Origin: Escherichia phage EC150
Reading direction: 5' to 3' (one strand)
DNA: 64,000 nt
Sequence record: ON210137.1
Part shown: positions 41,061 through 56,004 of the stretch, one piece after another
Layout: every line of letters starts with the position of its first letter
How positions within the stretch are numbered: the first letter of the stretch is position 1
Program-made: the position numbers and the translations under genes
Notes under the pieces: generated by a model
What the model saw: the letters and a program-made list of their open reading frames with translations, nothing else
Databases searched by the model: none
What the model was told of the DNA's origin: nothing

Positions 41061-42038
41061 TTAAAAATACTCCATATCGGTAATATCACGGAAGCATTTA
41101 TACAAGGCAGAGCGCGGCACGTCAACGATGCCAAAGTTGAAGAATTTATATGTCAGATACTTGTTGCGATAATTCTCGCGATTCTCCCAAAGCATTTTTC
41201 TCTCTGCCATAGGCATTGAACCAGCGGATACGCGGAAAGGAATCATTTCACCTTTCTCATCAACATATTTTGGATTGACAACCACAAATGATCCAAGGTA
41301 TCCTTTTGCAACTAAGCCTTCAGCCTCTTTCGAACGCTTAGTGCGACCCAACTCATCAATGAATGCTTCGTTGTTATTCTCCATCATCTCAACGAAGTCT
41401 ATGATCAGACCTTCTTCATCGGTCCACGGCTTGTCCTTCCACACATCACGTGACTTTGGCGTCGCGCGGCCATGCTTGTATTTGCCCGTCCAAGACTTGC
41501 CATACAAGCCTTCATAGCCAAGCTGGTCTGCTTCGATTTGCATCGCCGCGTACTGTTCCATATTTTCGATGTTTCGATATTCGAGAGCGCGAAGGAATGG
41601 GCGTCGACCATGGTTGAGGAGGTGCTGATTGACTTCAGCAACTCTAGCGCGATAGTTTGCATAACGCTTTTCAAAAGGCAAATCAGGGTCGCTGAAGTCA
41701 TCAAACACCCACCATGTAAAGTTAGTGATTGCATCAGTGTTCATGCATGCAGTATAGGCCTGTTGCATGACGTTCTTGTCGTTCGGATTACCGTCAATTA
41801 GCTCTCCATCAAGTCCGTGAATCAATTCACCCAAGAATAGGAACTCTTTTTTGATTTGAATATTGCGCAGCGCCATGCCGGACGTGCCCATTGGCAAGTT
41901 GTCATACGCCATCGCGCGTATGCCATCGACCTTGAAGGATAATCCGCAAGGCAGCGGCACATCTTCGCCGCGCTCGATGATTTGTTTACGCTGACAGCCT
42001 TTCATTGGTTTTAATGCTTTGATTTCTCCTGCCATCAC
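41061..42038 (-). CDS. ATP-dependent DNA ligase (putative)
   Basis: Nucleotidyltransferase motif I KVDGIR (KxDGxR) with downstream motif III-like FLGELIHGLDGELI. Confidence 0.55.
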   Translation of the reverse strand: MMAGEIKALKPMKGCQRKQIIERGEDVPLPCGLSFKVDGIRAMAYDNLPMGTSGMALRNIQIKKEFLFLGELIHGLDGELIDGNPNDKNVMQQAYTACMNTDAITNFTWWVFDDFSDPDLPFEKRYANYRARVAEVNQHLLNHGRRPFLRALEYRNIENMEQYAAMQIEADQLGYEGLYGKSWTGKYKHGRATPKSRDVWKDKPWTDEEGLIIDFVEMMENNNEAFIDELGRTKRSKEAEGLVAKGYLGSFVVVNPKYVDEKGEMIPFRVSAGSMPMAERKMLWENRENYRNKYLTYKFFNFGIVDVPRSALYKCFRDITDMEYF

Positions 42039-42628
42039 TCAAACTCCTTATTCATCACTTGTTCCAGCGCATAGGCATAAGCCTGATCAGTCGATTTGAT
42101 AAACGTTCCGTTGTACATCACACCTTTACGGTCCTTGATGTCTTCATAGGCGGCTTGAGCGCAATCAGACAGTCGAAGTCCATAATCATGTGCTACGCCG
42201 GAAAGATAATCGACTGCGCCCATGATGGTGACATCAATATCCATACTTTGATTTTTAGCAATGGCGTCACCAAGCCGTCCAAGAGTCTTTGCCAAGCGAA
42301 GGATAAACGAGTGAGGGTGAGCGCCTTTGTCAGCGCAACCGCCGCCGTTGATGTCTTCGATTTTTGCACCGTTTTGCGCGGCAAGAATAGTTAACACAAC
42401 AAGGCAATCGCCGATGTCATCCTTGATTGCGGATTGTAAATCACAGATGGCCTGCTCTGTATATCCGATTTCAGGGTCAAAGAACACAAGGTCATGTAAT
42501 TGATCAACGTGGTCGGTCAACTCCCCAAACTCGCTAATAAGCTTCGGGTATTGGTCCTTAAGGTCGCAGCCTTGGATGATGTTACGTTCAGAAGCCCACT
42601 GGCGAATGTTTGCATAAATCTGGTTCAT
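42035..42628 (-). CDS. MazG-like nucleotide pyrophosphohydrolase (putative)
   Basis: All-alpha protein with EFGELTDHVDQLHD and DIGDCLVVL acidic motifs reminiscent of MazG EExxE/D boxes. Confidence 0.45.
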   Translation of the reverse strand: MNQIYANIRQWASERNIIQGCDLKDQYPKLISEFGELTDHVDQLHDLVFFDPEIGYTEQAICDLQSAIKDDIGDCLVVLTILAAQNGAKIEDINGGGCADKGAHPHSFILRLAKTLGRLGDAIAKNQSMDIDVTIMGAVDYLSGVAHDYGLRLSDCAQAAYEDIKDRKGVMYNGTFIKSTDQAYAYALEQVMNKEFE

Positions 42629-43200: not shown

Positions 43201-44061
43201 TTAAAACTCTTCTGCGTCGGTCGGAGTTTCATTGACAGGACCAGCGGCACCGCTTGCTTCTTCCTGCTTGCTGCGGTCAATGTTAACGTTGCCGCCAACT
43301 ACGTCGTTGTGGAATGCTTTGGCGACTTCGTACAAACCTTTGTCCTGCACCAGACCTTCCAGCTCAAACTTCAGAACTGACCATGTGTTGCCGTCTTTGG
43401 ACTGGGATGCAGTACCCATGCGAACGATGTTCATAAAGGTCGGCGGCGTTTTCAGACCCTGCGGAGTCTGAACTTTCTTCTGCTGCAGAGCGGTCATCAG
43501 CATGCGAGACGGCTTGATCATGGAAGAAGTCAGAGACAGCATTGCGCTACCAAATTCACCAGTTTCTTCGTTCAACAGAATCACAAAGTGGTTGCGTGTA
43601 TCTGCGTAGTAAGGCGATTTCTTCTCGTGCACCTTGCCGTTTTCGTCCGGCACGAATACCTTACCGTTGATCTCAACAGCGCGGCCTGCCGCGACTTCTG
43701 CATCAACGTGCTCTTTGGTGAATTCACCTTTAAAGCCTTTATCGTCGGACTCGCGACCGCCCCAAAGGATGAAGGTGCGTTTGAATGCGCAAGGGATGAT
43801 CTGCACGCCTTTCTTACCGTCATACAACTCACCAGTAACGGTGTTGTAAAGCATTCCGGCTTTTGCGCCAGGAACGTGTTTTGGATCATCTTCGTCGACC
43901 ATAGGAGACATCTTCTGCAGGACGACGATAAAAGGAATGGCATACGCATCGGCATCGGCACCTTCAAAACCAGCGCCAAAATCGGTCATGTCGACAAAAT
44001 CAGCCATAGCGGACATCTGGGTGTTTTTCACTGCAACTTCGGTAGTTTCTTTCTTAGACAT
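43201..44061 (-). CDS. putative single-stranded DNA-binding protein (acidic C-terminal tail ending in Phe)
   Basis: 286 aa; C-terminus ...ETPTDAEEF resembles acidic tails of SSB/T7 gp2.5-type proteins; replication module context. Confidence 0.35.
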   Translation of the reverse strand: MSKKETTEVAVKNTQMSAMADFVDMTDFGAGFEGADADAYAIPFIVVLQKMSPMVDEDDPKHVPGAKAGMLYNTVTGELYDGKKGVQIIPCAFKRTFILWGGRESDDKGFKGEFTKEHVDAEVAAGRAVEINGKVFVPDENGKVHEKKSPYYADTRNHFVILLNEETGEFGSAMLSLTSSMIKPSRMLMTALQQKKVQTPQGLKTPPTFMNIVRMGTASQSKDGNTWSVLKFELEGLVQDKGLYEVAKAFHNDVVGGNVNIDRSKQEEASGAAGPVNETPTDAEEF

Positions 44062-44120: not shown

Positions 44121-44678
44121 TTACTTTTTGCTTTTAGGCAAGGTTATTTTAGCTTCTTTGTATTCAAAAACGCTAATATCTTCACTAACTGGATTGCCTG
44201 CTTCCAGCTGTTCTTTTACAAATGACTTCAGTGTAGCAGAATGAACGCCTTGTTTCAAGGTGGCTTCAACACCATCTTCACGCAGCGCGGCAACAATCTC
44301 TTGCGCCTGTTCGATTTCTTCGCGACCAAACTCAGCCGTGACGCTGGACTTGATCAGGCCGCCGTAACCGTTGTTTACAAGCCAATCGAAAACTTTTAAT
44401 TCGTTTTCTTTCTTGATTGAAGCGTTCACCTTGGACTCGACCTTGATTTTGGTCTTGTCCTCAAGCTTGATTTCGGACACGCCAAGCTCATCCATAACGC
44501 CAGGAAGCAAAACAGTTTTGATTTCACTGATACGCTGCTTTTGCATATCAGCTTCATCTTCAAGCTCTGTCAAAGCTTCTTGGCGTTCTGCCAGTTCAGA
44601 TACTAAGCGCGCAAGGCGCTCTTGAATGCTCTCAGGAGCAACCTGCGGCAAATCATCTTCCCAATTAATATTGCTCAT
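44121..44678 (-). CDS. hypothetical acidic coiled-coil protein (185 aa)
   Basis: ORF track. Confidence 0.5.
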   Translation of the reverse strand: MSNINWEDDLPQVAPESIQERLARLVSELAERQEALTELEDEADMQKQRISEIKTVLLPGVMDELGVSEIKLEDKTKIKVESKVNASIKKENELKVFDWLVNNGYGGLIKSSVTAEFGREEIEQAQEIVAALREDGVEATLKQGVHSATLKSFVKEQLEAGNPVSEDISVFEYKEAKITLPKSKK

Positions 44679-46955: not shown

Positions 46956-49839
46956 CTGGATACACCTGTTTGATAACGTCGACGATGAACATATCAATGC
47001 CTTCAAGCTTGCGGCCTTTCATCAGGAAGAATGCACCGTTCCCGACGTACTCTGCAATGTACTTCCCGTATTTCTGGAACTTCTCTGGGCGAATCCTGAA
47101 GCGCATTGGCGAGTCGGTCGAATCGTCCTTGCACATAAGGTCGATGAATTGAGTTTCAAGCTTGTTTCCATACTGGTCAAATTCTGCGTAGCGGCCATCG
47201 GCCTGAAGACCCTTTTTAAGCTTGCCGTGCTTTGTATAAATGCCGCGCTCAAGACGTTTACGGATGCGTGTTGCTTCGTTCTCGTCTGCCAGCACTTTCT
47301 TGGTCAGCTTGCCGATTACTATTGCACGCTCATCATCGCCTACTTCCTTCATCTGGCGTATTGAAGCGCCGGAAGTGACGCCAATCAGATATGGGTCATT
47401 ATATGCCCAGCCGAACTTGGTGTGCATCTCTGTAAGGTCGCCGTATTTAACTTCAGCATTGGCCAATGCATCCTTCTGCTTTTGCGTTAAGGTTCCGGCT
47501 TCACGTGCTTCGATGTACTTCATCGCCTTCACCATTCCGTACCCTTTAGCGTTCATGATGCCGCCGATTAGCTTTCCGTTAGCGATGGTCCAGTTCATTG
47601 AAGAGTGATCAGGGTCGATTGGCACATAATCCACGCCTTCCTTCGCAAGTTCACGTAATATCGCAATCGTCTGGTCTTCGTCCTTAGCAGCGCGTAAGCA
47701 AGCAGCGGCAAATTCCAACGGGTAGTGTCGTTTAAGCCACAAGGTCCAGTAGGTTACGACCGCGTATGACACGGAGTGTGACTTGTTAAAGCCCCATGAC
47801 CCGAACGTCGCCATCGCCTGCCAAAGCTTTCTTGCATCCGCTTCCGGTACGCCGTTATTTATTGCGCCTGCAACGAAGTCTTCGCCAAGCTTGTTAAAGT
47901 ATTCCTCGCCCTTACGACCTGACATCGCCTTACGCACGGCTGATGTTTTCGCCCAGTCGAATGAACCAATCTCTTTAACCACGGCCATGATTTGCTCTTG
48001 GTAAAGAAACACGCCGTAAGTCTCTTTTAAGTACGGCTCAAGCTGCGGCACGTCGTACTCAATCGGCGCACGCCCTGCCGCGCGTTCAATGTATTTCTGG
48101 GCCATACCGGATGACAACGGGCCAGGTCGACCAAGTGCTGTCAGGTTATCGATTTTGTTGAAGTTGTCAACGTGCACAAAGTTGGTTACTGAGCGCACAG
48201 CGTCACCTTCAAACTGAAAGATTCCTGACATCTTGTTTTCGTTAAGGATATCAAGGACGCTTTGGTCATCAAGCTTGATTCCGTATAGCGTTTCAGCATC
48301 TATCACGCCAGTATCAGAAATGATTCCGAGGGTGCGAAGACCCAACGCATCAAGCTTCAAAAGGTTAAGGTATTCGCTGTCAGGCTTATCAATTTGCGCA
48401 ATCCCTTCCGCCGTTACCGTACAGTAATCAGAGATTGGGTCATTACACACGATGATTCCCGCTGCGTGAACGCCAGTGTGGGAAGGGTGAATCTCAAGGT
48501 CACCCATGCATCGCGCGGCGTCAGGATATTTCGCCACGAACTCTTGGCCCGTGGTCGTTGTTGCAAAAGTATCCTCCAGGCCGTGACCATAACGGGCGTC
48601 ACCGGATGAGTATTCAAGCAATGCGTTTTTAATGTTGGCCGTTTCGTGATATCCAATGTTGAACTTCTTACCAACCTGAGCCATTACTGAGTTGGCCTTA
48701 AGCGTGTTGATGTTGCCAAGCTTTGCAACGTTCATTTCGCCATATTTTTCTTTAAGGTAATCAAACACCATATAACGTTTGGTGTCCTCAAAGTCAATAT
48801 CAATATCAGGGAGGTCGGCGCGGCTTACGTCGATGAATCGGGCAAATAGCAGCTTATACGGGATTGGGTCAACTTCCGTGATGCCGAGGCAATAACAAAC
48901 CAGTGAACCAGCCGATGAGCCGCGTGCAGGACCGACAAGCATTTTTGTTTTTGCGAATCGTACAAGGTCCGCTACTACCAGAAAGTATGAGTCGAAATCT
49001 TTCAACTGAATCTGGTGAATTTCTTCGTTGAAGCGGTCCTCATATTCCTGAGTCCATTCTTTGATGTGACCTGCTTTGAGACGGTACTCCATCCCCTCAC
49101 GCGCAAGCTTTACCATATCACCAGCAAGGTGAATAATCGGTGCCTTGCGTAATTTCAGGTCAAGTCCGACTATGCCGTTTGCTATGTCAACAGCATTGGC
49201 CGTTGCCTGATTCAGCTCATCTTCCGTCAAGATGCCTTTAAGCTGTTTGCGCAAGTCTTCCGCGTCAACGATGCAGTGCGGCTTGACCGTGTCGCGCACT
49301 TCCCAAGCATAAGCAAAGTCAACGTGCTCAGGTGAAGGCATGTGGTTGTATCCGGTTAAAACCAGCGGCCTTCCGTTGCTGCGGTGAGCCAACACCTGGC
49401 GCTTAGCCAAAAGGAACGATGATGGGTTGACGTCTATATAATCGTAGTCCTCTGGCCGCAGCAGCTCAACGGCACCGCCACAGAATTTAACGACGCCATC
49501 AAGCGCACCGAACTCTTCACGGGTAAGCCCACCGCGCTGCGTTGAAAGTGTTGTAGCGTTGTAAAAAGATTTTAAGTCAAGGGACAGTATCCAAGCCTTC
49601 GGTTTGAATCCCTTTTTCGGGTCCGCATCAGGGTCGATGATTGGAATCTCCATCCCAAACATAGGCTTAATATCATTTTTCTGGCATTCCTTTTCCCAGC
49701 GGACGTGACCCCATGTGTTGTTATCAACTAATGCCGCGACTTCGCAGCCCAACTCTTTGAGCCGTGCTATAATTTCAGGATGCCGTCCATAAACTTCTTT
49801 GAACGTGTAACCGCTGCGAACTCTCAATTGTGGAAACAT
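46936..49839 (-). CDS. dnaE: DNA polymerase III alpha subunit-like replicative polymerase (DnaE family) with N-terminal PHP domain
   Basis: 967 aa; N-terminal PHP-like region; polymerase core motifs; adjacent DnaQ-like exonuclease. Confidence 0.8.
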   Translation of the reverse strand: MFPQLRVRSGYTFKEVYGRHPEIIARLKELGCEVAALVDNNTWGHVRWEKECQKNDIKPMFGMEIPIIDPDADPKKGFKPKAWILSLDLKSFYNATTLSTQRGGLTREEFGALDGVVKFCGGAVELLRPEDYDYIDVNPSSFLLAKRQVLAHRSNGRPLVLTGYNHMPSPEHVDFAYAWEVRDTVKPHCIVDAEDLRKQLKGILTEDELNQATANAVDIANGIVGLDLKLRKAPIIHLAGDMVKLAREGMEYRLKAGHIKEWTQEYEDRFNEEIHQIQLKDFDSYFLVVADLVRFAKTKMLVGPARGSSAGSLVCYCLGITEVDPIPYKLLFARFIDVSRADLPDIDIDFEDTKRYMVFDYLKEKYGEMNVAKLGNINTLKANSVMAQVGKKFNIGYHETANIKNALLEYSSGDARYGHGLEDTFATTTTGQEFVAKYPDAARCMGDLEIHPSHTGVHAAGIIVCNDPISDYCTVTAEGIAQIDKPDSEYLNLLKLDALGLRTLGIISDTGVIDAETLYGIKLDDQSVLDILNENKMSGIFQFEGDAVRSVTNFVHVDNFNKIDNLTALGRPGPLSSGMAQKYIERAAGRAPIEYDVPQLEPYLKETYGVFLYQEQIMAVVKEIGSFDWAKTSAVRKAMSGRKGEEYFNKLGEDFVAGAINNGVPEADARKLWQAMATFGSWGFNKSHSVSYAVVTYWTLWLKRHYPLEFAAACLRAAKDEDQTIAILRELAKEGVDYVPIDPDHSSMNWTIANGKLIGGIMNAKGYGMVKAMKYIEAREAGTLTQKQKDALANAEVKYGDLTEMHTKFGWAYNDPYLIGVTSGASIRQMKEVGDDERAIVIGKLTKKVLADENEATRIRKRLERGIYTKHGKLKKGLQADGRYAEFDQYGNKLETQFIDLMCKDDSTDSPMRFRIRPEKFQKYGKYIAEYVGNGAFFLMKGRKLEGIDMFIVDVIKQVYPDGNKQP

Positions 49840-50381
49840 TATTTACTCCAGATGTCATATACGCCAATTTGTTGGCAGACTTTGTGCAGTAATATTACGT
49901 CGTCTAATGCACGGTGCTTCTGTTCATATTTTCCGAAATATAATTCATACAGCTCTTGAAGCTTAACTCTTCGGCCAAAAATAGGCAAGGTTTGCTCAAC
50001 TGTACATATGTTTATTTCTGGAAAATTAACATCATCAAGCGTAAGTCCTTCGCGCTGTAGTGCATAATCAAGAATGTTTTTATCGAACGCATGGTTGTGC
50101 GCGATAGTTGCATCAGTCTTCTTGAAGATTTCTTTTAGCTGCGGGACGAAATTGATGAACGGTGGATTGCACTCAAGGTCTTCATTAGTTAATCCGGTAA
50201 TCTTTGTGATGATTTCTTCAATCACAATTTCAGGATTAATTATGAATTCAAACGTTTCAAGAATCTCTTTGCCGTCTGTCAACAGACCTGCAAATTCAAT
50301 AGGACGCGGCTGCATCCCAAGCGGCGCTTTCGGGTGCACGGTCAATCCGGTTGTTTCGAAGTCATAAGGGAGAAATAACAC
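49839..50381 (-). CDS. DnaQ-like 3'-5' exonuclease (proofreading subunit)
   Basis: Exo I motif YDFETTG near N-terminus; Exo III-like HRALDDV near C-terminus; 1-nt overlap with dnaE start. Confidence 0.8.
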   Translation of the reverse strand: MLFLPYDFETTGLTVHPKAPLGMQPRPIEFAGLLTDGKEILETFEFIINPEIVIEEIITKITGLTNEDLECNPPFINFVPQLKEIFKKTDATIAHNHAFDKNILDYALQREGLTLDDVNFPEINICTVEQTLPIFGRRVKLQELYELYFGKYEQKHRALDDVILLHKVCQQIGVYDIWSK

Positions 50382-50435: not shown

Positions 50436-50987
50436 TTATACGGTGTACGGAGTACCGTCTTGATTCAAGCGCACGATAAACTTAAGGTCGACGCCAATAA
50501 TATCACGCGTGTCAAAGATCACATAGTTGTAGCGACGTTGACCAGCAATGTTAGGATTGGTGTGGGAGTCGGTGATGACTTCCTGCGCAACCTGAATATG
50601 TTCGTTCTTAAAGAACTCACGCCATTCGGCAAGTTCTGCGGCAGTCACGTGCATGCCAAGGTGGCTAACCTGATTATCGTGCGCATCGATGTATTCAATG
50701 TTTTCGTTAATCCAGTTGCAGCCCTTTGTGTAGTCAAGGATTTCAAGCTCAAGAGGCTTACCAGCGCTGCCATCAGTTCCGTTTCCAGCTTGATAGTTGA
50801 AGCGTAAATCAGCTTCGTTGGTGCAATCGCCGCGCTGGCCTTTAAAGTCATCAGATTCAAATACGCGACCAGTAGCAACAACGTGATCATGGAACCATTC
50901 TGTCAGGCCGATTTTAGCCAGGAAATTCTGTGCGCGCTGAGCACCTGGGATTGACAGGGCGATTTGTTCAATTTTAAAATGTGGCAT
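50436..50987 (-). CDS. hypothetical protein, possibly VOC/glyoxalase-like
   Basis: ORF track; weak resemblance only. Confidence 0.45.
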   Translation of the reverse strand: MPHFKIEQIALSIPGAQRAQNFLAKIGLTEWFHDHVVATGRVFESDDFKGQRGDCTNEADLRFNYQAGNGTDGSAGKPLELEILDYTKGCNWINENIEYIDAHDNQVSHLGMHVTAAELAEWREFFKNEHIQVAQEVITDSHTNPNIAGQRRYNYVIFDTRDIIGVDLKFIVRLNQDGTPYTV

Positions 50988-51083
50988 TTTGTTTCCTTAA
51001 TTAAATATTATTGATTAATTACTGTGTTATCTTCGTCCTGTTTCTTTTCAGGAGCGGGTGTGACAACTTCAAATGTTCGTGAT

Positions 51084-51767
51084 TTATTTCCCAAATGGAA
51101 TATCAGTACCAGACATAAAGCGCCATGCGCCCGTAATTAAGATATGGCGAATGAAGTCAGCAATTACTTGCGGCTCAGTCTCCAATCCATTCATCAGTGC
51201 CTTTTTCTGGTATTCAGCAGCATACTCAGGAGTCCAGCCGCGAGTCGCGCAAACAGCATCTTCAATCTGTTTGGACATGCCAGTACCACGTAGCTTGTTA
51301 GGACTAATAGAGAATACCGTGATGCCGTATTTAGGCGTAAGCTCGTGAGCCATCTGCTTGCTAATCATAAGCGCAGCAGCCTTGGATGCATTATAACACA
51401 AGCTGGACGTCATAGGAATGTGCGCAGCGTTAGAAACGATATTGATCACAAAACCTTTGTTGTCGATAAGACTTTTCAGCGCGGCTTGAGTCGTGTTAAC
51501 GAAAGAGAATGCGTTGGTGTGCATAACGCGATTGAACTCTTCGTAGTTAACATCTTCGAACCAGTTGTTGGAGTTGACGCCAGCGCAGTTGATCAAGCCT
51601 TCTACATCATATGGGCTTAAAATTTCTTTCATCTGTTTAGCGTCGCGGACGTCATATCCGTATGCTGAATCGATGCCAAGCACGTTATGACCGTAAGCGC
51701 CAAGGGTGTCAAAAATAGATTTACCAAGACCGGAATTGGAACCTGTTACAACAATTACTTTTTTCAT
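51084..51767 (-). CDS. short-chain dehydrogenase/reductase (SDR) family oxidoreductase
   Basis: N-terminal cofactor-binding VTGSNSGLGKSI (TGxxxGxG) and catalytic YNASKAA (YxxxK). Confidence 0.8.
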   Translation of the reverse strand: MKKVIVVTGSNSGLGKSIFDTLGAYGHNVLGIDSAYGYDVRDAKQMKEILSPYDVEGLINCAGVNSNNWFEDVNYEEFNRVMHTNAFSFVNTTQAALKSLIDNKGFVINIVSNAAHIPMTSSLCYNASKAAALMISKQMAHELTPKYGITVFSISPNKLRGTGMSKQIEDAVCATRGWTPEYAAEYQKKALMNGLETEPQVIADFIRHILITGAWRFMSGTDIPFGK

Positions 51768-51790
51768 TTATTTATCCTTTTTGGACTTCG

Positions 51791-51820
51791 TTTCGATGAG
51801 ATAAATATAACTCATCGAAA
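51791..51820. other. perfect 10-bp stem-loop (TTTCGATGAG / CTCATCGAAA, 10-nt loop) between HAD-like and SDR genes
   Basis: Inverted repeat read directly; no T-tract. Confidence 0.4.
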
Positions 51821-51832
51821 CGCACAAGTAAA

Positions 51833-52705
51833 CTATTTATTGAAATTAATATTATGGGTGTTGACAAGACGTTCACACATGGCGCTGTAAACACCATCGT
51901 CGTGTATTGAGTCTTCGTGCTTCAGGCCGCTGATTGCGAAGCGTGTAAGCTTGACAATCTTAAGCTCGAACAGATGCCACATGTGGTAGTCTTCCGGCGT
52001 TTTCAACGTTACGCCATTAGGGAAAAGCACCTGCATAACCTGGCCTACCATCACAGCGTTATCGCCATAGACAGCGTTGCGCTCACGAAAGGTTGCTGCC
52101 ATTGCATCAAGAATATCGGCGGCAGTTGCCGGAGATTGTTCAACTTCCACAGCCTTAGTCTCTTCTTGCCCTGTTGCGCTTGGATCAATTGCTAATTGTT
52201 GCACCACTTCACCTGCCTTGCAAAGATTAAATGTAAAAGCGATTTTATTTTGAGCAACGGAATTATAATACAATGCTTCATCTTGCATCCGCGCGAGTAC
52301 GTCTTGTCGGTCGTCGAATACGTTGATGATTCGATAATCGCCGTGGCGCAATGCGTGCGATAGCCATGCAGATTTCATAATAGTTGATGGACGTTTGTCG
52401 CCATAGTCTCTCATCTTGATTGTAAATTCATCAAAAGGAAAAACATTGTCCAGACGTTCAAAAGTCACTTGTCTGTATTTTTCTGGCCTTGCAGTCCAAT
52501 ATTCAACCGCCTCACCGCGAAGAGATGCCGACTCTACTGCTGATGCAATGTGAGGATAGAACTGATCATAACCAATACCGCTATGATAGTCATCATAGTC
52601 TGACAACGGACCTGCCACCTTGATGCGGTCTAAGCGCCAACGGTCATCAAACAGCGTTCCGTCAAGGTCGAATACGTTTAAGATTTCGCTGTTTTTAATG
52701 CTCAT
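51833..52705 (-). CDS. HAD-superfamily phosphatase-like protein with C-terminal domain of unknown function
   Basis: HAD motif I VFDLDGTLFDD near N-terminus. Confidence 0.5.
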   Translation of the reverse strand: MSIKNSEILNVFDLDGTLFDDRWRLDRIKVAGPLSDYDDYHSGIGYDQFYPHIASAVESASLRGEAVEYWTARPEKYRQVTFERLDNVFPFDEFTIKMRDYGDKRPSTIMKSAWLSHALRHGDYRIINVFDDRQDVLARMQDEALYYNSVAQNKIAFTFNLCKAGEVVQQLAIDPSATGQEETKAVEVEQSPATAADILDAMAATFRERNAVYGDNAVMVGQVMQVLFPNGVTLKTPEDYHMWHLFELKIVKLTRFAISGLKHEDSIHDDGVYSAMCERLVNTHNINFNK

Positions 52706-53505
52706 CCTTTTGATACTCCATCTTTAGCAACTGGATTGTTGGTGATTGGCATCGCACTCCAAAACTGGATGCGCAACTCTTCTTGCTGTGACGTGGTATC
52801 CATCCAATCACGATACCAAGGGCAATGGGCTTTGCCATGACGAGGAAACGCGCATTTACCCATACCGATGCATTGCGGCTGTAATAATGGATTTGCCCAC
52901 GGGTGCACCTTGAGGACTTCCGCAACCATTGCGCGGAATACTTCTTGATACTCGCCTTGAGTGCGCGTGCACAAGCGGTTTGACGCCATCTGCTGCAGCG
53001 TGCGCAAGTTGAACTTTGCCATGATATGCGTTTGCATATTAGAAGGCAACACGGCACGTGCATCTTGAATCTCTGCGCCAGCCGCGCGAAGCTCTTGATA
53101 CAAAGCATCGATAGTCGCCATCGCATCATCCCACTTCTCTGCCAGTTCAGCGGCCTTCTCGTCATGACGAGTCCATCCCTTTGGATCATCCTCTGGGTAA
53201 GTGAATTTAGCAGGACGAATCGCATCAAATGCAGACGACTCCTGAGCGCGGCTGGTGCGTTCTTGATATGCGCCTGTGCGTGTGCGTACCATCTGATGGG
53301 TCATGTTCTTTGATACATCTGTGATATCAAAGATATAGTCCACAAAGTCAAAAGGCGACTTGATTGTATCAAGCATGTAGCGCCAATGCTCTTGCTTCTC
53401 TGATTCCGTCATCTCAGAGACAGGCTTACCAGTCATGCGCGTGTTCTTTGTTTCCAGCAAAAGGTCAAGTGCATCTTGGGTGTATCGAATTAATTCAACT
53501 TTCAT
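52702..53505 (-). CDS. flavin-dependent thymidylate synthase (ThyX)-like protein with divergent signature motif
   Basis: HQMVRTRTGAYQERTSR resembles ThyX HxxVRHRxxSxSQxSxRY block but with RTR in place of RHR; C-terminal NLRTL...TQGEYQEVFRAM also ThyX-like. Confidence 0.55.
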   Translation of the reverse strand: MKVELIRYTQDALDLLLETKNTRMTGKPVSEMTESEKQEHWRYMLDTIKSPFDFVDYIFDITDVSKNMTHQMVRTRTGAYQERTSRAQESSAFDAIRPAKFTYPEDDPKGWTRHDEKAAELAEKWDDAMATIDALYQELRAAGAEIQDARAVLPSNMQTHIMAKFNLRTLQQMASNRLCTRTQGEYQEVFRAMVAEVLKVHPWANPLLQPQCIGMGKCAFPRHGKAHCPWYRDWMDTTSQQEELRIQFWSAMPITNNPVAKDGVSKG

Positions 53506-53518
53506 TTTAATTATCCTA

Positions 53519-53965
53519 TTAACGGTAATTCACTAGTTGCTGATCACCAGAGAAGGTGCAATGATAAACGAATTGTGCGTTATAAAGCAACTGAAAACTT
53601 TTCTTTGGTTCATTATTAGAACTCATCGATGTAAAGATTTCTGCACCAGAACGGTTTTCACCAATCAGATTAATAAAGCCGCCAGTTGAACGAGGCTGGA
53701 CGAAAGTGAAACGTTGCATCCACGGAGTACGGTTGGCACCTTTCCCTGTGAATCCCTGAATCTGAATATTCAGACCTTCTTGCTCGTTCACACCGATGTA
53801 AGTGGTAATCTTCGCACCAGTCGTTGCTGCGGTCTTACCGTCCATCGCTTCGCAATCGTAAACAGCGATTGAATCGGAAGTACGGATGGCAGCTTCAGTC
53901 GCTTCCATATACATGGTGCCGAGAATAGCAGTTGCGGCAAGCGCGATTCCAGTGATTCGTTTCAT
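53519..53965 (-). CDS. exported protein with N-terminal signal peptide (148 aa)
   Basis: N-terminal MKRITGIALAATAILGTMYMEATEAA hydrophobic signal-like segment. Confidence 0.5.
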   Translation of the reverse strand: MKRITGIALAATAILGTMYMEATEAAIRTSDSIAVYDCEAMDGKTAATTGAKITTYIGVNEQEGLNIQIQGFTGKGANRTPWMQRFTFVQPRSTGGFINLIGENRSGAEIFTSMSSNNEPKKSFQLLYNAQFVYHCTFSGDQQLVNYR

Positions 53966-54030
53966 TTCCGTTTCCTCTATGAGTTCTGCTTCAATGATTA
54001 AAGTATACGCCCATTGAAGCAGAAAGCAAA

Positions 54031-55026
54031 TTATTTATTAGCAATATAAGCAAATTTTTGATAGTTATTTGCTTTGATGAGTTTTTCAACTTCAACAAGG
54101 TCATGAGCGACGTCATCAAGCAAAATGTTGCGCCAGGTAGCAAATCGACCGACACTAAACACGTTCAAATCCATGGTCAGCTGCAGGAGTAGGGCGTGTC
54201 GCAAGTCTTTCGGAATGTCGACAATCTTGCCATATTTCTGGTCGACCTTTTCAACTTCTTCAAGAGCAATGTCACTCCATGAGAGGCCAAAAGCTGTCAA
54301 CACTTCGTCGACTTCTGCGCGCAGCTTGATGTCACGGTAACGAGTGATGCCGCCAGCGGCTTCAACTGCAGCTTCACTCACGCTGACCAAAGGAATTGTT
54401 TCAATGATCAGTGTGTCGCCAGTGATTGATGCGCGGTAAGTTCTGACGGAGTAGTCAGGGAAGTAAATTGTTTGATACAAATCACACTTACGTTTAATCT
54501 TAAAGCGGTAAACGCGAATGTTTGCTTTATCAAATGAGAAATCAAGCTTTTGATCAATCCCAGCCAGCTTCATCATGACTGGCAGCGGCGACGTGTTGAT
54601 GATTGGCGTCTCGCTATAGCCGCAAAGAGTATCAACCGGAGTATTAAAGAATATGCGGTCACCCAGTTTGTCGACAAGCTGATCATAAAAGTCATCAGGC
54701 GCAATATAACGTGTTGCAGTCTTAAGCTTCATGATTGAACGGCTGCCAAACTGATTGGTGACCTTCATGGAATACATATTGGCAAGGTTGATTGGGCAAT
54801 GGTCGTGGTAGTAGTTGCCGCGAAAATACACAGCCTTGTCAACTGTCACGGCCTTGAAAGGGATTCCGGTAATACGGCTTACTTCTTCGCCGCGAAAGCG
54901 TAGAAGCGCCTTGTGCTGTTGCGCTCGTTCCCCTGCTTCGTACACAATAGAGTTCGGGAAGTGACACGCTGTGATAAGTCCTGCCAGTCCGCCGCCGATA
55001 ATCATTACAGGTTGTTTCATGTTCAT
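54031..55026 (-). CDS. FAD/NAD(P)-binding Rossmann-fold oxidoreductase-like protein
   Basis: N-terminal dinucleotide-binding motif VMIIGGGLAGLITA (GxGxxG). Confidence 0.55.
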   Translation of the reverse strand: MNMKQPVMIIGGGLAGLITACHFPNSIVYEAGERAQQHKALLRFRGEEVSRITGIPFKAVTVDKAVYFRGNYYHDHCPINLANMYSMKVTNQFGSRSIMKLKTATRYIAPDDFYDQLVDKLGDRIFFNTPVDTLCGYSETPIINTSPLPVMMKLAGIDQKLDFSFDKANIRVYRFKIKRKCDLYQTIYFPDYSVRTYRASITGDTLIIETIPLVSVSEAAVEAAGGITRYRDIKLRAEVDEVLTAFGLSWSDIALEEVEKVDQKYGKIVDIPKDLRHALLLQLTMDLNVFSVGRFATWRNILLDDVAHDLVEVEKLIKANNYQKFAYIANK

Positions 55027-55158: not shown

Positions 55159-56004
55159 TTATTCCGCTTGATCACCGTCTTCGGCATCTTCGTTGGATTC
55201 AACATCGACAAACTCGATGTGACCCATCTCTTCCAGCTTGCTCAGGTAGGAGCGAACTGAAGCGCCAAACAGTTGATCTTTAACTTTTTCGCCCAGCTCA
55301 TCGATAGACTGTGCCACGCCAACTTCGCCTTCTTTGATCGCCGCCAGAACGCGTCCACGGGTGGAATGCTCTTGCGGCTGACTCAGGCCATTGCCAGTGT
55401 AGATGAAGTGAGTAGCTTTTGCACGACGCTGACCATTGGCCTTTTTGGCAGCCTTACGTTCTGCGATGGCTTTGCGACGTTCTTCAGCTTCTTGCTTACG
55501 CTGTTCTTTCTGCTGTTCTGCAGCTTCTTTCGCCGCAATCTTAGCAGCTTCACGCTCTGCCTTGCGTTTCGCTTTGGCTTCTTCTTTGGCCTTCTCTTTT
55601 TCGGCCTTCGCTGCAGCACGGGCTTGATCACGCTCTGCTTTCTTAGCAGCAGCTTGTTCAGCTTTCAGGCGCTTGGCTTCTTCTTTAGCCTTTGCCTTTT
55701 CGATTTCTTTCGCTGCTTTAGCGGCTTCACGCTCTGCTTTCTTAGCAGCAGCCTTTTCTGCACGCTCTTTGGCCTTCTTGGCTGCTTCTTCAGCACGCTT
55801 CTGAGCCTTCTCATCAGCAGCCTGCTTGCGTTTCAGGGCAGCTTCTTCACGCTTGGCTTGTTTTTCCTGCTCACGCTTCTGGCGTTTTTCTTCGGCTTCT
55901 TTCTTTTTAGCCAGACGTTTTTCTTCAGCCACGCGACGACGTTCTGCTGCAGCTGCTTGTTTTTCTTCTTTAGATAATACTTTGATTGCTTCGGCCATGT
56001 TCAC
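55159..56004 (-). CDS. Lys/Ala/Glu-rich repeat protein (long charged helix, histone H1-like / TolA-like repeats) with C-terminal acidic domain
   Basis: About 190 aa of KAEEAAKKA-type imperfect repeats then a globular region and acidic tail EDAEDGDQAE; repetitive DNA 55400-55950. Confidence 0.55.
   Translation of the reverse strand: MNMAEAIKVLSKEEKQAAAAERRRVAEEKRLAKKKEAEEKRQKREQEKQAKREEAALKRKQAADEKAQKRAEEAAKKAKERAEKAAAKKAEREAAKAAKEIEKAKAKEEAKRLKAEQAAAKKAERDQARAAAKAEKEKAKEEAKAKRKAEREAAKIAAKEAAEQQKEQRKQEAEERRKAIAERKAAKKANGQRRAKATHFIYTGNGLSQPQEHSTRGRVLAAIKEGEVGVAQSIDELGEKVKDQLFGASVRSYLSKLEEMGHIEFVDVESNEDAEDGDQAE

Follow-up and report, generated by a model that had tools for sequence, protein, structure and literature searches.

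Gene cluster and its recurrence among phages

The analysed window, 64,000 nucleotides of Escherichia phage EC150 (ON210137.1), was derived from a Wifcevirus, an E. coli myovirus approximately 96% identical to phage WFH. The subject of this study was a cluster of six minus-strand genes in the window, coding for the proteins P1-P6. Five of these genes formed a cassette that recurred in many other phages and that probably represents a new flavin- and ThyX-based pathway for the hypermodification of thymidine in the phage's own DNA. A preliminary description of the window had placed six consecutive minus-strand genes between DnaQ and a Lys/Ala/Glu-rich protein gene. All six open reading frames (ORFs) were found there, together with every motif that had been quoted (TGSNSGLG, YNASK, DLDGT, RTRTGA, GGGLAG and a signal-like segment of P5). 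The locus was organized as follows:

49839-50381: DnaQ gene, flanking the cluster beyond P1
50419-50400, minus strand: terminator-like hairpin downstream of the cassette, between P1 and DnaQ (8-bp stem with 7 GC pairs, then TTTTT)
50436-50987, minus strand: P1, VOC-fold protein, 183 aa
51084-51767, minus strand: P2, SDR, 227 aa
51833-52705, minus strand: P3, HAD phosphatase-DUF6378 protein, 290 aa
52702-53505, minus strand: P4, ThyX-family protein, 267 aa
53519-53965, minus strand: P5, signal-peptide protein, 148 aa
54031-55026, minus strand: P6, FAD flavoprotein, 331 aa, the first gene of the cassette
55131-55111, minus strand: terminator-like hairpin upstream of the cassette, between the Lys/Ala/Glu-rich gene and P6 (8-bp stem, then TTTTTT)
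55159-56004, minus strand: Lys/Ala/Glu-rich protein gene, 281 aa, directly upstream of P6

The intergenic gaps within the cluster were short, and the stop of the P4 gene overlapped the start of the P3 gene by 4 nt. The two hairpins enclosed exactly the six genes, and terminators had been annotated at both matching positions in phage Mansfield. Therefore, the six genes look like one transcription unit that was inserted between the Lys/Ala/Glu-rich gene and the genes of DnaQ and Pol III alpha. When the 4.6-kb region was compared with 28 Wifcevirus genomes, including WFH, ECML-117, FEC19, Mansfield and BASEL Bas98-101, identities of 93-97% were obtained. These relatives were E. coli and Shigella myoviruses of 66-72 kb and distant kin of the Pseudomonas Pbunavirus (PB1-like) group.

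The preliminary description had treated the six genes as one pathway, and the conservation of the cluster in related phages was checked. Five of the genes proved to be a widely conserved colinear cassette, while P5 turned out to be an insert found in Wifcevirus only. For this analysis, 80 viral loci with a P6 homologue of 39-99% identity were fetched from IMG/VR, and the genes were counted in the 45 loci that extended at least 7 kb downstream. A ThyX gene was present in 45/45 loci and followed P6 in all of them, and a HAD gene was present in 44/45. Both SDR and VOC genes were recorded in 32 loci and neither of them in 11. The gene order was always P6, ThyX, HAD(-DUF6378), SDR, VOC, DnaQ and Pol III alpha, and it was retained in marine contigs whose primase and helicase were different. 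In six distant loci from metagenome-assembled genomes (MAGs; 29-41% identity), ThyX also stood directly after P6 in 6/6 cases.

The same pairing was observed among 50,697 phage genomes, where P6 occurred in 361 records and the P4-type ThyX, which lacks the signature histidine, in 363 records with the same host distribution; the VOC protein was detected in 52. In view of this linkage and one-to-one co-occurrence, P6 and the histidine-less ThyX subfamily appear to be obligate partners, and SDR and VOC appear to be an accessory pair that is gained and lost together. The trio of P6, ThyX and HAD was also encountered in unrelated architectures, namely in the 42-kb Cronobacter phage Ss1, a 207-kb Rhizobium phage and Pbunavirus 14-1 and F8, the last two of which carried P6, ThyX and HAD-DUF6378 as a three-gene core. 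Microbacterium phage Sparcetus (ON755183; loci L096/L097; 37215-46086 and 48262-49662) encoded SDR, VOC and DUF6378 homologues, which were grouped beside DnaE with a HAD phosphatase and an FAD protein, the latter of only weak similarity to P6 (hhalign probability of 52%). A GT2 glycosyltransferase was encoded too, as was a 466-aa ThyX in which RQR replaced RHR. Hence, the module spans phages of Gram-negative and Gram-positive hosts.

Additional same-strand ORFs between P6 and DnaQ in the 45 loci (212 in total) were clustered and were mostly spurious ORFs in alternative frames. The sole recurrent real addition, found in some lineages, was a gene similar to Pyr_excise, the T4 endonuclease V-like pyrimidine-dimer DNA glycosylase. 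It was located at L069:6356-6916, L098:6754-7239 and L096:4234-4782 (E values of 1.5e-14, 3.2e-5 and 1.6e-3) and in about 12 more loci, and its place inside the cassette was either the ThyX-HAD interval or the position immediately upstream of the P6-like gene. No Pyr_excise gene was present in the window or in Pbunavirus.

Protein families of the cassette

The enzyme folds that had been assigned from motifs were borne out by family searches, in which P2, P3 and P4 matched adh_short, HAD_PNKP and Thy1, respectively. The P4 protein scored 107.1 bits against Pfam Thy1 (PF02511; gathering cutoff 24.8, E value 1.3e-30), but 83.1 bits against the NCBIfam ThyX equivalog TIGR02170, which was under the cutoff of 87.9. 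The ThyX signature RHRxxS was replaced by RTRTGA at aa 74-79. In the alignment with Thermotoga maritima ThyX, His53, which we take to be the histidine that stacks on the pterin of folate, corresponded to Ile (Ile48 of P4), and His79, Ser88 and Tyr91 were changed to Thr, Thr and Ala, respectively. Judged by its sequence, P4 thus fails three defining features of ThyX, namely the equivalog score, the RHRxxS signature and His53. The dUMP-binding residues R78, R80, R90, R147 and R174 of the T. maritima enzyme were all Arg in P4 and in the family alignment.

The histidine of RHR was absent from 75 of the 76 distinct ThyX homologues linked to P6, the central residue being T in 59, S in 12, N in 3, I in 1 and H in 1 of them, and a TI(K/P/R)S motif, with Ile at the position of T. 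maritima His53, was seen in nearly all. Additionally, P4 contained a C-terminal Cys/His-rich insertion, CIGMGKCAFPRHGKAHC, at aa 212-228 (window 52822-52872, minus strand), which may be a metal site. This insertion occurred in 36 of the 76 homologues (the PB1-like ones), was missing from the rest and was followed by a conserved NNPVAKDG tail. Compared with canonical ThyX (PF02511, TIGR02170), the P4 family therefore shared the fold and the dUMP-binding arginines and differed in having RTR, RSR, RNR or RQR for RHR, Ile for His53 and Ala or Val for Tyr91, in the extra Cys/His insertion, in the constant pairing with the P6 flavoprotein and, for P4 itself, in a score under the equivalog cutoff.

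The P6 partner possessed GGGLAG at aa 11-16 and an FAD-binding GxGxxG fold of the type known from UDP-galactopyranose mutase (UGM) and amine oxidases. In the fold comparison UGM appeared to be the closest, with protoporphyrinogen oxidase (PPOX) close behind, and an HHpred match of the P6 counterpart to UGM had separately been noted in the GenBank record of Mansfield. Searches of Pfam at E values up to 0.1 gave no match for P6, GLF included, and none was obtained in NCBIfam. Sequence and alignment-profile searches of all PDB chains yielded nothing significant, no UGM being among the matches at E values up to 10; only the fold comparison was informative. P6 corresponded to PHROG 4828, and generic names or none were given to P1, P5 and P6 by PHROGs and NCBIfam. 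About 1954 proteins made up the P6 family, and nearly all of them came from viral contigs of about 40-73 kb; among GTDB genomes, taken as one per species, only six matches were found, all on phage-like MAG contigs. By these sequence criteria, P6 was assigned to a new phage-specific family of FAD proteins and was not classified as a UGM.

The N-terminal part of P3 was a HAD phosphatase of the PNKP-phosphatase type (HAD_PNKP, 33.5 bits against a cutoff of 27.6, E value 5.4e-8; phrog_4889, 8e-122) with the nucleophile motif DLDGT (DxDxT) at aa 13-17. Its C-terminal domain (approximately aa 185-290) was assigned to DUF6378, which was matched by 12 of 15 homologues of this domain and which in several lineages was encoded on its own, by a gene of about 95 aa. 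Databases name P3 a polynucleotide kinase/phosphorylase. That name was rejected, since no kinase family, and thus no P-loop kinase domain, was matched in the Pfam search, and the C-terminal half was DUF6378. Nothing significant was retrieved with P3 from all PDB chains or with the DUF6378 alignment profile.

P2 was a classical SDR (adh_short, 109 bits, E value 2.6e-31) with TGSNSGLG at aa 8-15 and YNASK at aa 125-129. A generic likeness to FabG was recorded in the PDB (1.6e-12); however, all NCBIfam matches lay far under their cutoffs, and the database name of FabG 3-oxoacyl-ACP reductase was rejected because the best FabG models scored 59-75 bits against cutoffs of 222-298. P1 exhibited the VOC fold of the glyoxalase/epimerase/dioxygenase superfamily with paired beta-alpha-beta-beta-beta modules, and methylmalonyl-CoA epimerases were the closest. 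Its invariant residues Q8, E80/E82, H109/H113 and D167 were situated on the expected strands and may form the four-residue metal site of VOC proteins. A sequence search of all PDB chains with P1 gave nothing significant. P1 was the last gene of the five-gene cassette, and P2 belonged to this five-gene version.

The P5 protein carried an N-terminal signal-like segment, MKRITGIALAATAILGTMYMEA, and matched nothing in Pfam, PHROG or NCBIfam. No homologue outside Wifcevirus was detected among 87 loci searched. As P5 was confined to Wifcevirus and missing from every other cassette, the exported protein was rejected as a pathway member; it resembles an inserted moron and might act in the periplasm as an exclusion or anti-defence factor.

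Modified thymidine and avoided palindromes

Two groups of phages that carry the cassette or its three-gene core have been reported to possess unusual DNA or unusual resistance. In Pbunavirus F8 and 14-1, about one quarter of the thymidines of virion DNA were replaced in a TG context by nucleosides of 362 and 390 Da, which were read as tetritol- and pentose-type derivatives; the phages had no known modification genes, and no biosynthetic genes were assigned to the modified thymidine (Yee et al.; PMC12191111; 2025). According to a 2026 preprint, native nanopore sequencing of Pbunavirus fails, which its authors attributed to probable modified bases. Wifcevirus resists restriction-modification systems without a known protection mechanism (PMC11990801; 2025). 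The window contained 15 EcoRI, 8 EcoRV and 6 EcoKI sites, so the resistance was not due to missing sites.

The two masses corresponded arithmetically to thymidine plus C4H8O4 and plus C5H8O5, that is, to 5-hydroxymethyl-deoxyuridine condensed with a tetritol or a pentose. The 362 Da species fitted equally well a deoxyuridine with a C-linked five-carbon polyol. The literature search returned no paper that ties the cassette genes to DNA modification.

The palindrome content of the window was also analysed, and the avoidance of hexamer palindromes proved extreme. Out of 64 hexamer palindromes, 19 were seen once or never (6 once and 13 not at all), when 5-19 copies of each were expected. Those with zero copies in 64 kb were AGATCT, CCCGGG, CTCGAG, CGTACG, CGATCG, CCGCGG, CCTAGG, GAGCTC, GGATCC, GGGCCC, TCCGGA, GGTACC and GCTAGC. 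The expected counts of GATC, XbaI sites and BsaI sites were 247, 18 and 26, whereas the observed counts were 103, 1 and 1, respectively. Avoidance affected 0/16 of the palindromes containing TG/CA and 19/48 of the others (Fisher p 0.0015), and in the GC=4 class, 11/16 of the palindromes without TG/CA were nearly absent compared with 0/8 of those with it. TG/CA was the most significant of ten dinucleotide classes in the window, where palindromes with TT/AA were spared as well. Largely the same palindromes were avoided by F8 (CTCGAG, CCCGGG, CGATCG, GGTACC, GGGCCC, CCGCGG, GAGCTC, AGATCT, GGATCC and CGTACG). In phiEco32, a control phage free of the cassette, 6/16 TG/CA palindromes were avoided, and across 59 pooled non-redundant cassette loci (858 kb), TG/CA palindromes had the highest median observed/expected ratio (0.89 vs 0.64). 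The pattern is suggestive: it fits a modification that shields sites containing TG/CA, so that selection against those sites relaxes.

Several genes outside the cassette were inspected as well. The Lys/Ala/Glu-rich protein consisted of a basic low-complexity N-terminal part and a globular C-terminal domain, had no Pfam match and may be a histone-like DNA-binding protein; its homologue was Pbunavirus F8 gp066 (4e-31), and it was confined to the PB1-like subset of cassette loci. The conserved minus-strand genes at 43201-44061 and 44121-44678 matched the Pam3 gp34-like (4e-86) and Pam3 gp33-like/DUF7307 (3e-37) families, the former of which also flanked the cassette in marine contigs (L098-L100). 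A nearby MazG-like gene, which the preliminary description had drawn into the pathway, was real (42035-42628, minus strand), while its link to the cluster was not substantiated: the Pfam MazG match was weak and under the cutoff (E value 0.0098), and the gene lay 8 kb off in a separate transcription unit. It adjoined the ligase in Pbunavirus as well (F8 gp049), and nothing tied it to the cassette. In the Pbunavirus pair, F8 gp070 (L006:3031-4227) and 14-1 gp71 (L005:2931-4235) were 57% identical amid neighbours of 94-100% and showed a weak match to a DnaJ-type CxxCxGxG zinc finger; homologues of gp069-071 of F8/14-1 were absent from the window.

Proposed pathway, alternatives and known systems

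Based on these data, we proposed that the five-gene cassette probably directs the biosynthesis of a sugar-derived thymidine hypermodification that would shield the genome from restriction. In its favour, no other known modification genes were noticed among ten further ORFs of unknown function in the window or in the curated annotation of Mansfield. The chemistry is inferred, and our confidence in any single chemical step is much lower. The preliminary description had suggested a DNA-base modification pathway with a hypermodified pyrimidine and sugar chemistry. That idea gained ground from the conservation of the cassette, the sugar-type thymidine of relatives carrying the core and the restriction resistance of Wifcevirus; it has to be narrowed with respect to P5, which falls outside the cassette, and to the MazG link.

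In the proposed mechanism, P4 would act at C5 of a deoxyuridine or thymidine nucleotide by flavin-dependent chemistry, following an exocyclic-methylene/flavin-iminium route. UGM-type enzymes form flavin-sugar iminium adducts, and P6 is accordingly a plausible candidate for the enzyme that prepares, supplies or couples the sugar moiety. ThyX catalysis involves a flavin-N5 iminium and, on C5 of uracil, an exocyclic methylene (PMC8989533). P4 has lost the histidines that contact folate and flavin in canonical ThyX, and therefore it probably does not simply reduce the intermediate to thymine. Either a sugar hydroxyl could trap the exocyclic-methylene electrophile in place of hydride, or a sugar aldehyde could be taken in place of the one-carbon unit. 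The HAD-DUF6378 protein P3 would strip phosphate from a sugar-phosphate or nucleotide intermediate, and in the five-gene version SDR and VOC would remodel the sugar by oxidation, epimerisation and reduction. Since this pair is present, the sugar-thymidine of Wifcevirus should differ from that of Pbunavirus. We tentatively suggest, although the odds are rather against it in this specific form, that P4 and P6 join a sugar-derived unit to C5 of deoxyuridine by new flavin chemistry, giving the 362/390 Da nucleosides of Pbunavirus and, in Wifcevirus, a third adduct to which SDR and VOC would give its form, by a route that would be independent of ThyA-type hydroxymethylases, DNA kinases and aGPT-Pplases and present in hundreds of phages, major therapy phages among them.

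A number of observations weigh against the assignment of the cassette to thymidine hypermodification. The main gap is that TG specificity calls for an enzyme acting on DNA, when canonical ThyX works on free dUMP and no recognisable DNA-binding enzyme is among the five proteins. The Pyr_excise-like gene inside the cassette of some lineages hints at a DNA-level step, and its glycosylase product could be the DNA-acting component in the phages that carry it. Published restriction or nucleoside data on Wifcevirus DNA were sought in the literature and none were found. Wifcevirus also resists EcoRI and EcoRV, the sites of which lack TG, so its specificity differs or another mechanism contributes; a pure TG-only specificity was rejected for Wifcevirus because it does not fit this resistance. 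The adducts of F8 and 14-1 differ, although the two phages share 97% identity in P6 and 94% in ThyX. The most divergent gene nearby is gp070/gp71 (57%), which has no homologue in the window, and HAD-DUF6378 comes second with 81%. As for the palindromes, sparing of TG/CA was weak in F8 (avoided 1/16 vs 14/48, p 0.09), the signal in the 59 pooled loci had an uncorrected p value of 0.03, and the analysis rests on one negative control genome, phiEco32. Finally, much of the gene linkage could be inherited from the common ancestor of one large phage supergroup, whose members have the Pol III replication module in common as well.

The genes might alternatively provide an ordinary supply of nucleotides, with ThyX as a working thymidylate synthase, HAD as a nucleotidase or end-healing phosphatase, and the flavoprotein, SDR and VOC in support, for instance in flavin or folate redox. 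dTMP would then be delivered for very fast replication, and the DNA would be modified by other genes. This we considered unlikely. It agrees with the ThyX fold and the complete set of nucleotide-binding arginines of P4, with its database label of thymidylate synthase, with the position of the genes in the replication module beside DnaQ and Pol III alpha, and with the very fast replication reported for Wifcevirus. However, P4 scored under the equivalog cutoff, and the equivalents of the RHR histidine and His53 were missing from 75/76 linked homologues. For a plain thymidylate synthase an obligate UGM-like partner would be superfluous, yet one-to-one co-occurrence of the two was seen across the phage database, and neither an SDR nor an epimerase-like VOC protein has a role in dTMP synthesis.

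A role outside DNA was judged still less credible. A sugar nucleotide or small metabolite made for a change of the host envelope, superinfection exclusion or metabolic takeover would suit the UGM-like fold of P6, the SDR and epimerase-like enzymes that are typical of sugar tailoring, the signal-peptide protein P5 within the Wifcevirus cluster and the PHROGs classification of the SDR as an auxiliary metabolic gene. This explanation is highly improbable, as no glycosyltransferase, flippase or membrane protein was found in the window, P5 is missing from every other cassette, P6 has no sequence-level UGM match, and, in strictly lytic phages that infect very different hosts, the cassette is always coupled to ThyX and replicase genes. 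The least credence was given to a modification of RNA or a repair of nucleic acid ends, that is, a TrmFO- or MnmG-like flavin modification of tRNA uridine or a PNKP-type healing with the nearby ligase. The HAD domain of P3 does match the PNKP phosphatase family, a DNA ligase lies 9 kb away, and flavin-dependent C5-uridine modification of tRNA is well established (PMC8989533). Nevertheless, a kinase domain is missing from P3, domains of the tRNA-binding or THUMP/PUA type were not found, the oddity measured in relatives resides in virion DNA, and the palindrome signature concerns DNA.

The cassette, read as a thymidine hypermodification pathway, provides a concrete and testable genetic candidate for two observations, the sugar-thymidine of Pbunavirus and the resistance of Wifcevirus to restriction. 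Pbunaviruses belong to the phages employed most often in therapy against Pseudomonas aeruginosa. If the reading is true, the enzymes that build non-canonical DNA would come to include the ThyX family and a new flavoprotein family, and the failed native nanopore sequencing and cloning of these phages would be explained. The targets of modification-dependent nucleases, such as END nucleases, would become predictable among phages, and new enzymes would be available for making sugar-decorated DNA.

Recruitment of a ThyX paralogue for an unusual C5-substituted uridine nucleotide would have a precedent in PolB of polyoxin biosynthesis in Streptomyces, a ThyX-like C5-methylase of UMP. PolB differs from P4 in acting within an antibiotic pathway and in still performing methyl transfer. 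In base J and in the glucosyl-hydroxymethylcytosine of T-even phages, DNA is likewise protected by a sugar attached through the C5 substituent of a pyrimidine. Those systems depend on a JBP/TET dioxygenase or a ThyA-type hydroxymethylase and on dedicated glycosyltransferases, none of which was found in the window.

A close functional parallel was offered by phages M6, ViI, SP10, PhiW-14 and PaMx11. Gene clusters of these phages, located near the genes for replication, modify some of the thymidines at the C5-methyl and thereby block restriction, and the combination of tailoring enzymes changes from phage to phage (Lee et al. 2018; PMC8989533). A precedent for a flavoprotein acting on a DNA base adduct is gp47 of PaMx11 (PMC8989533). 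These pathways employ a ThyA-type dUMP hydroxymethylase, a P-loop DNA kinase for 5-hydroxymethyl-deoxyuridine (5-hmdU) and the amino-acid:DNA transferase aGPT-Pplase, the attached groups being amino acids or amines. The three enzymes went undetected in the six cluster proteins, the ten other ORFs of unknown function or the annotations of Mansfield and Bas98, in a scan that covered ORFs down to about 120 aa. In the cassette, the C5 enzyme comes from the unrelated ThyX family, and the adducts of the relatives are sugar-like. The cassette would work to the same end as the 5-hmdU-based systems but is not a member of them.

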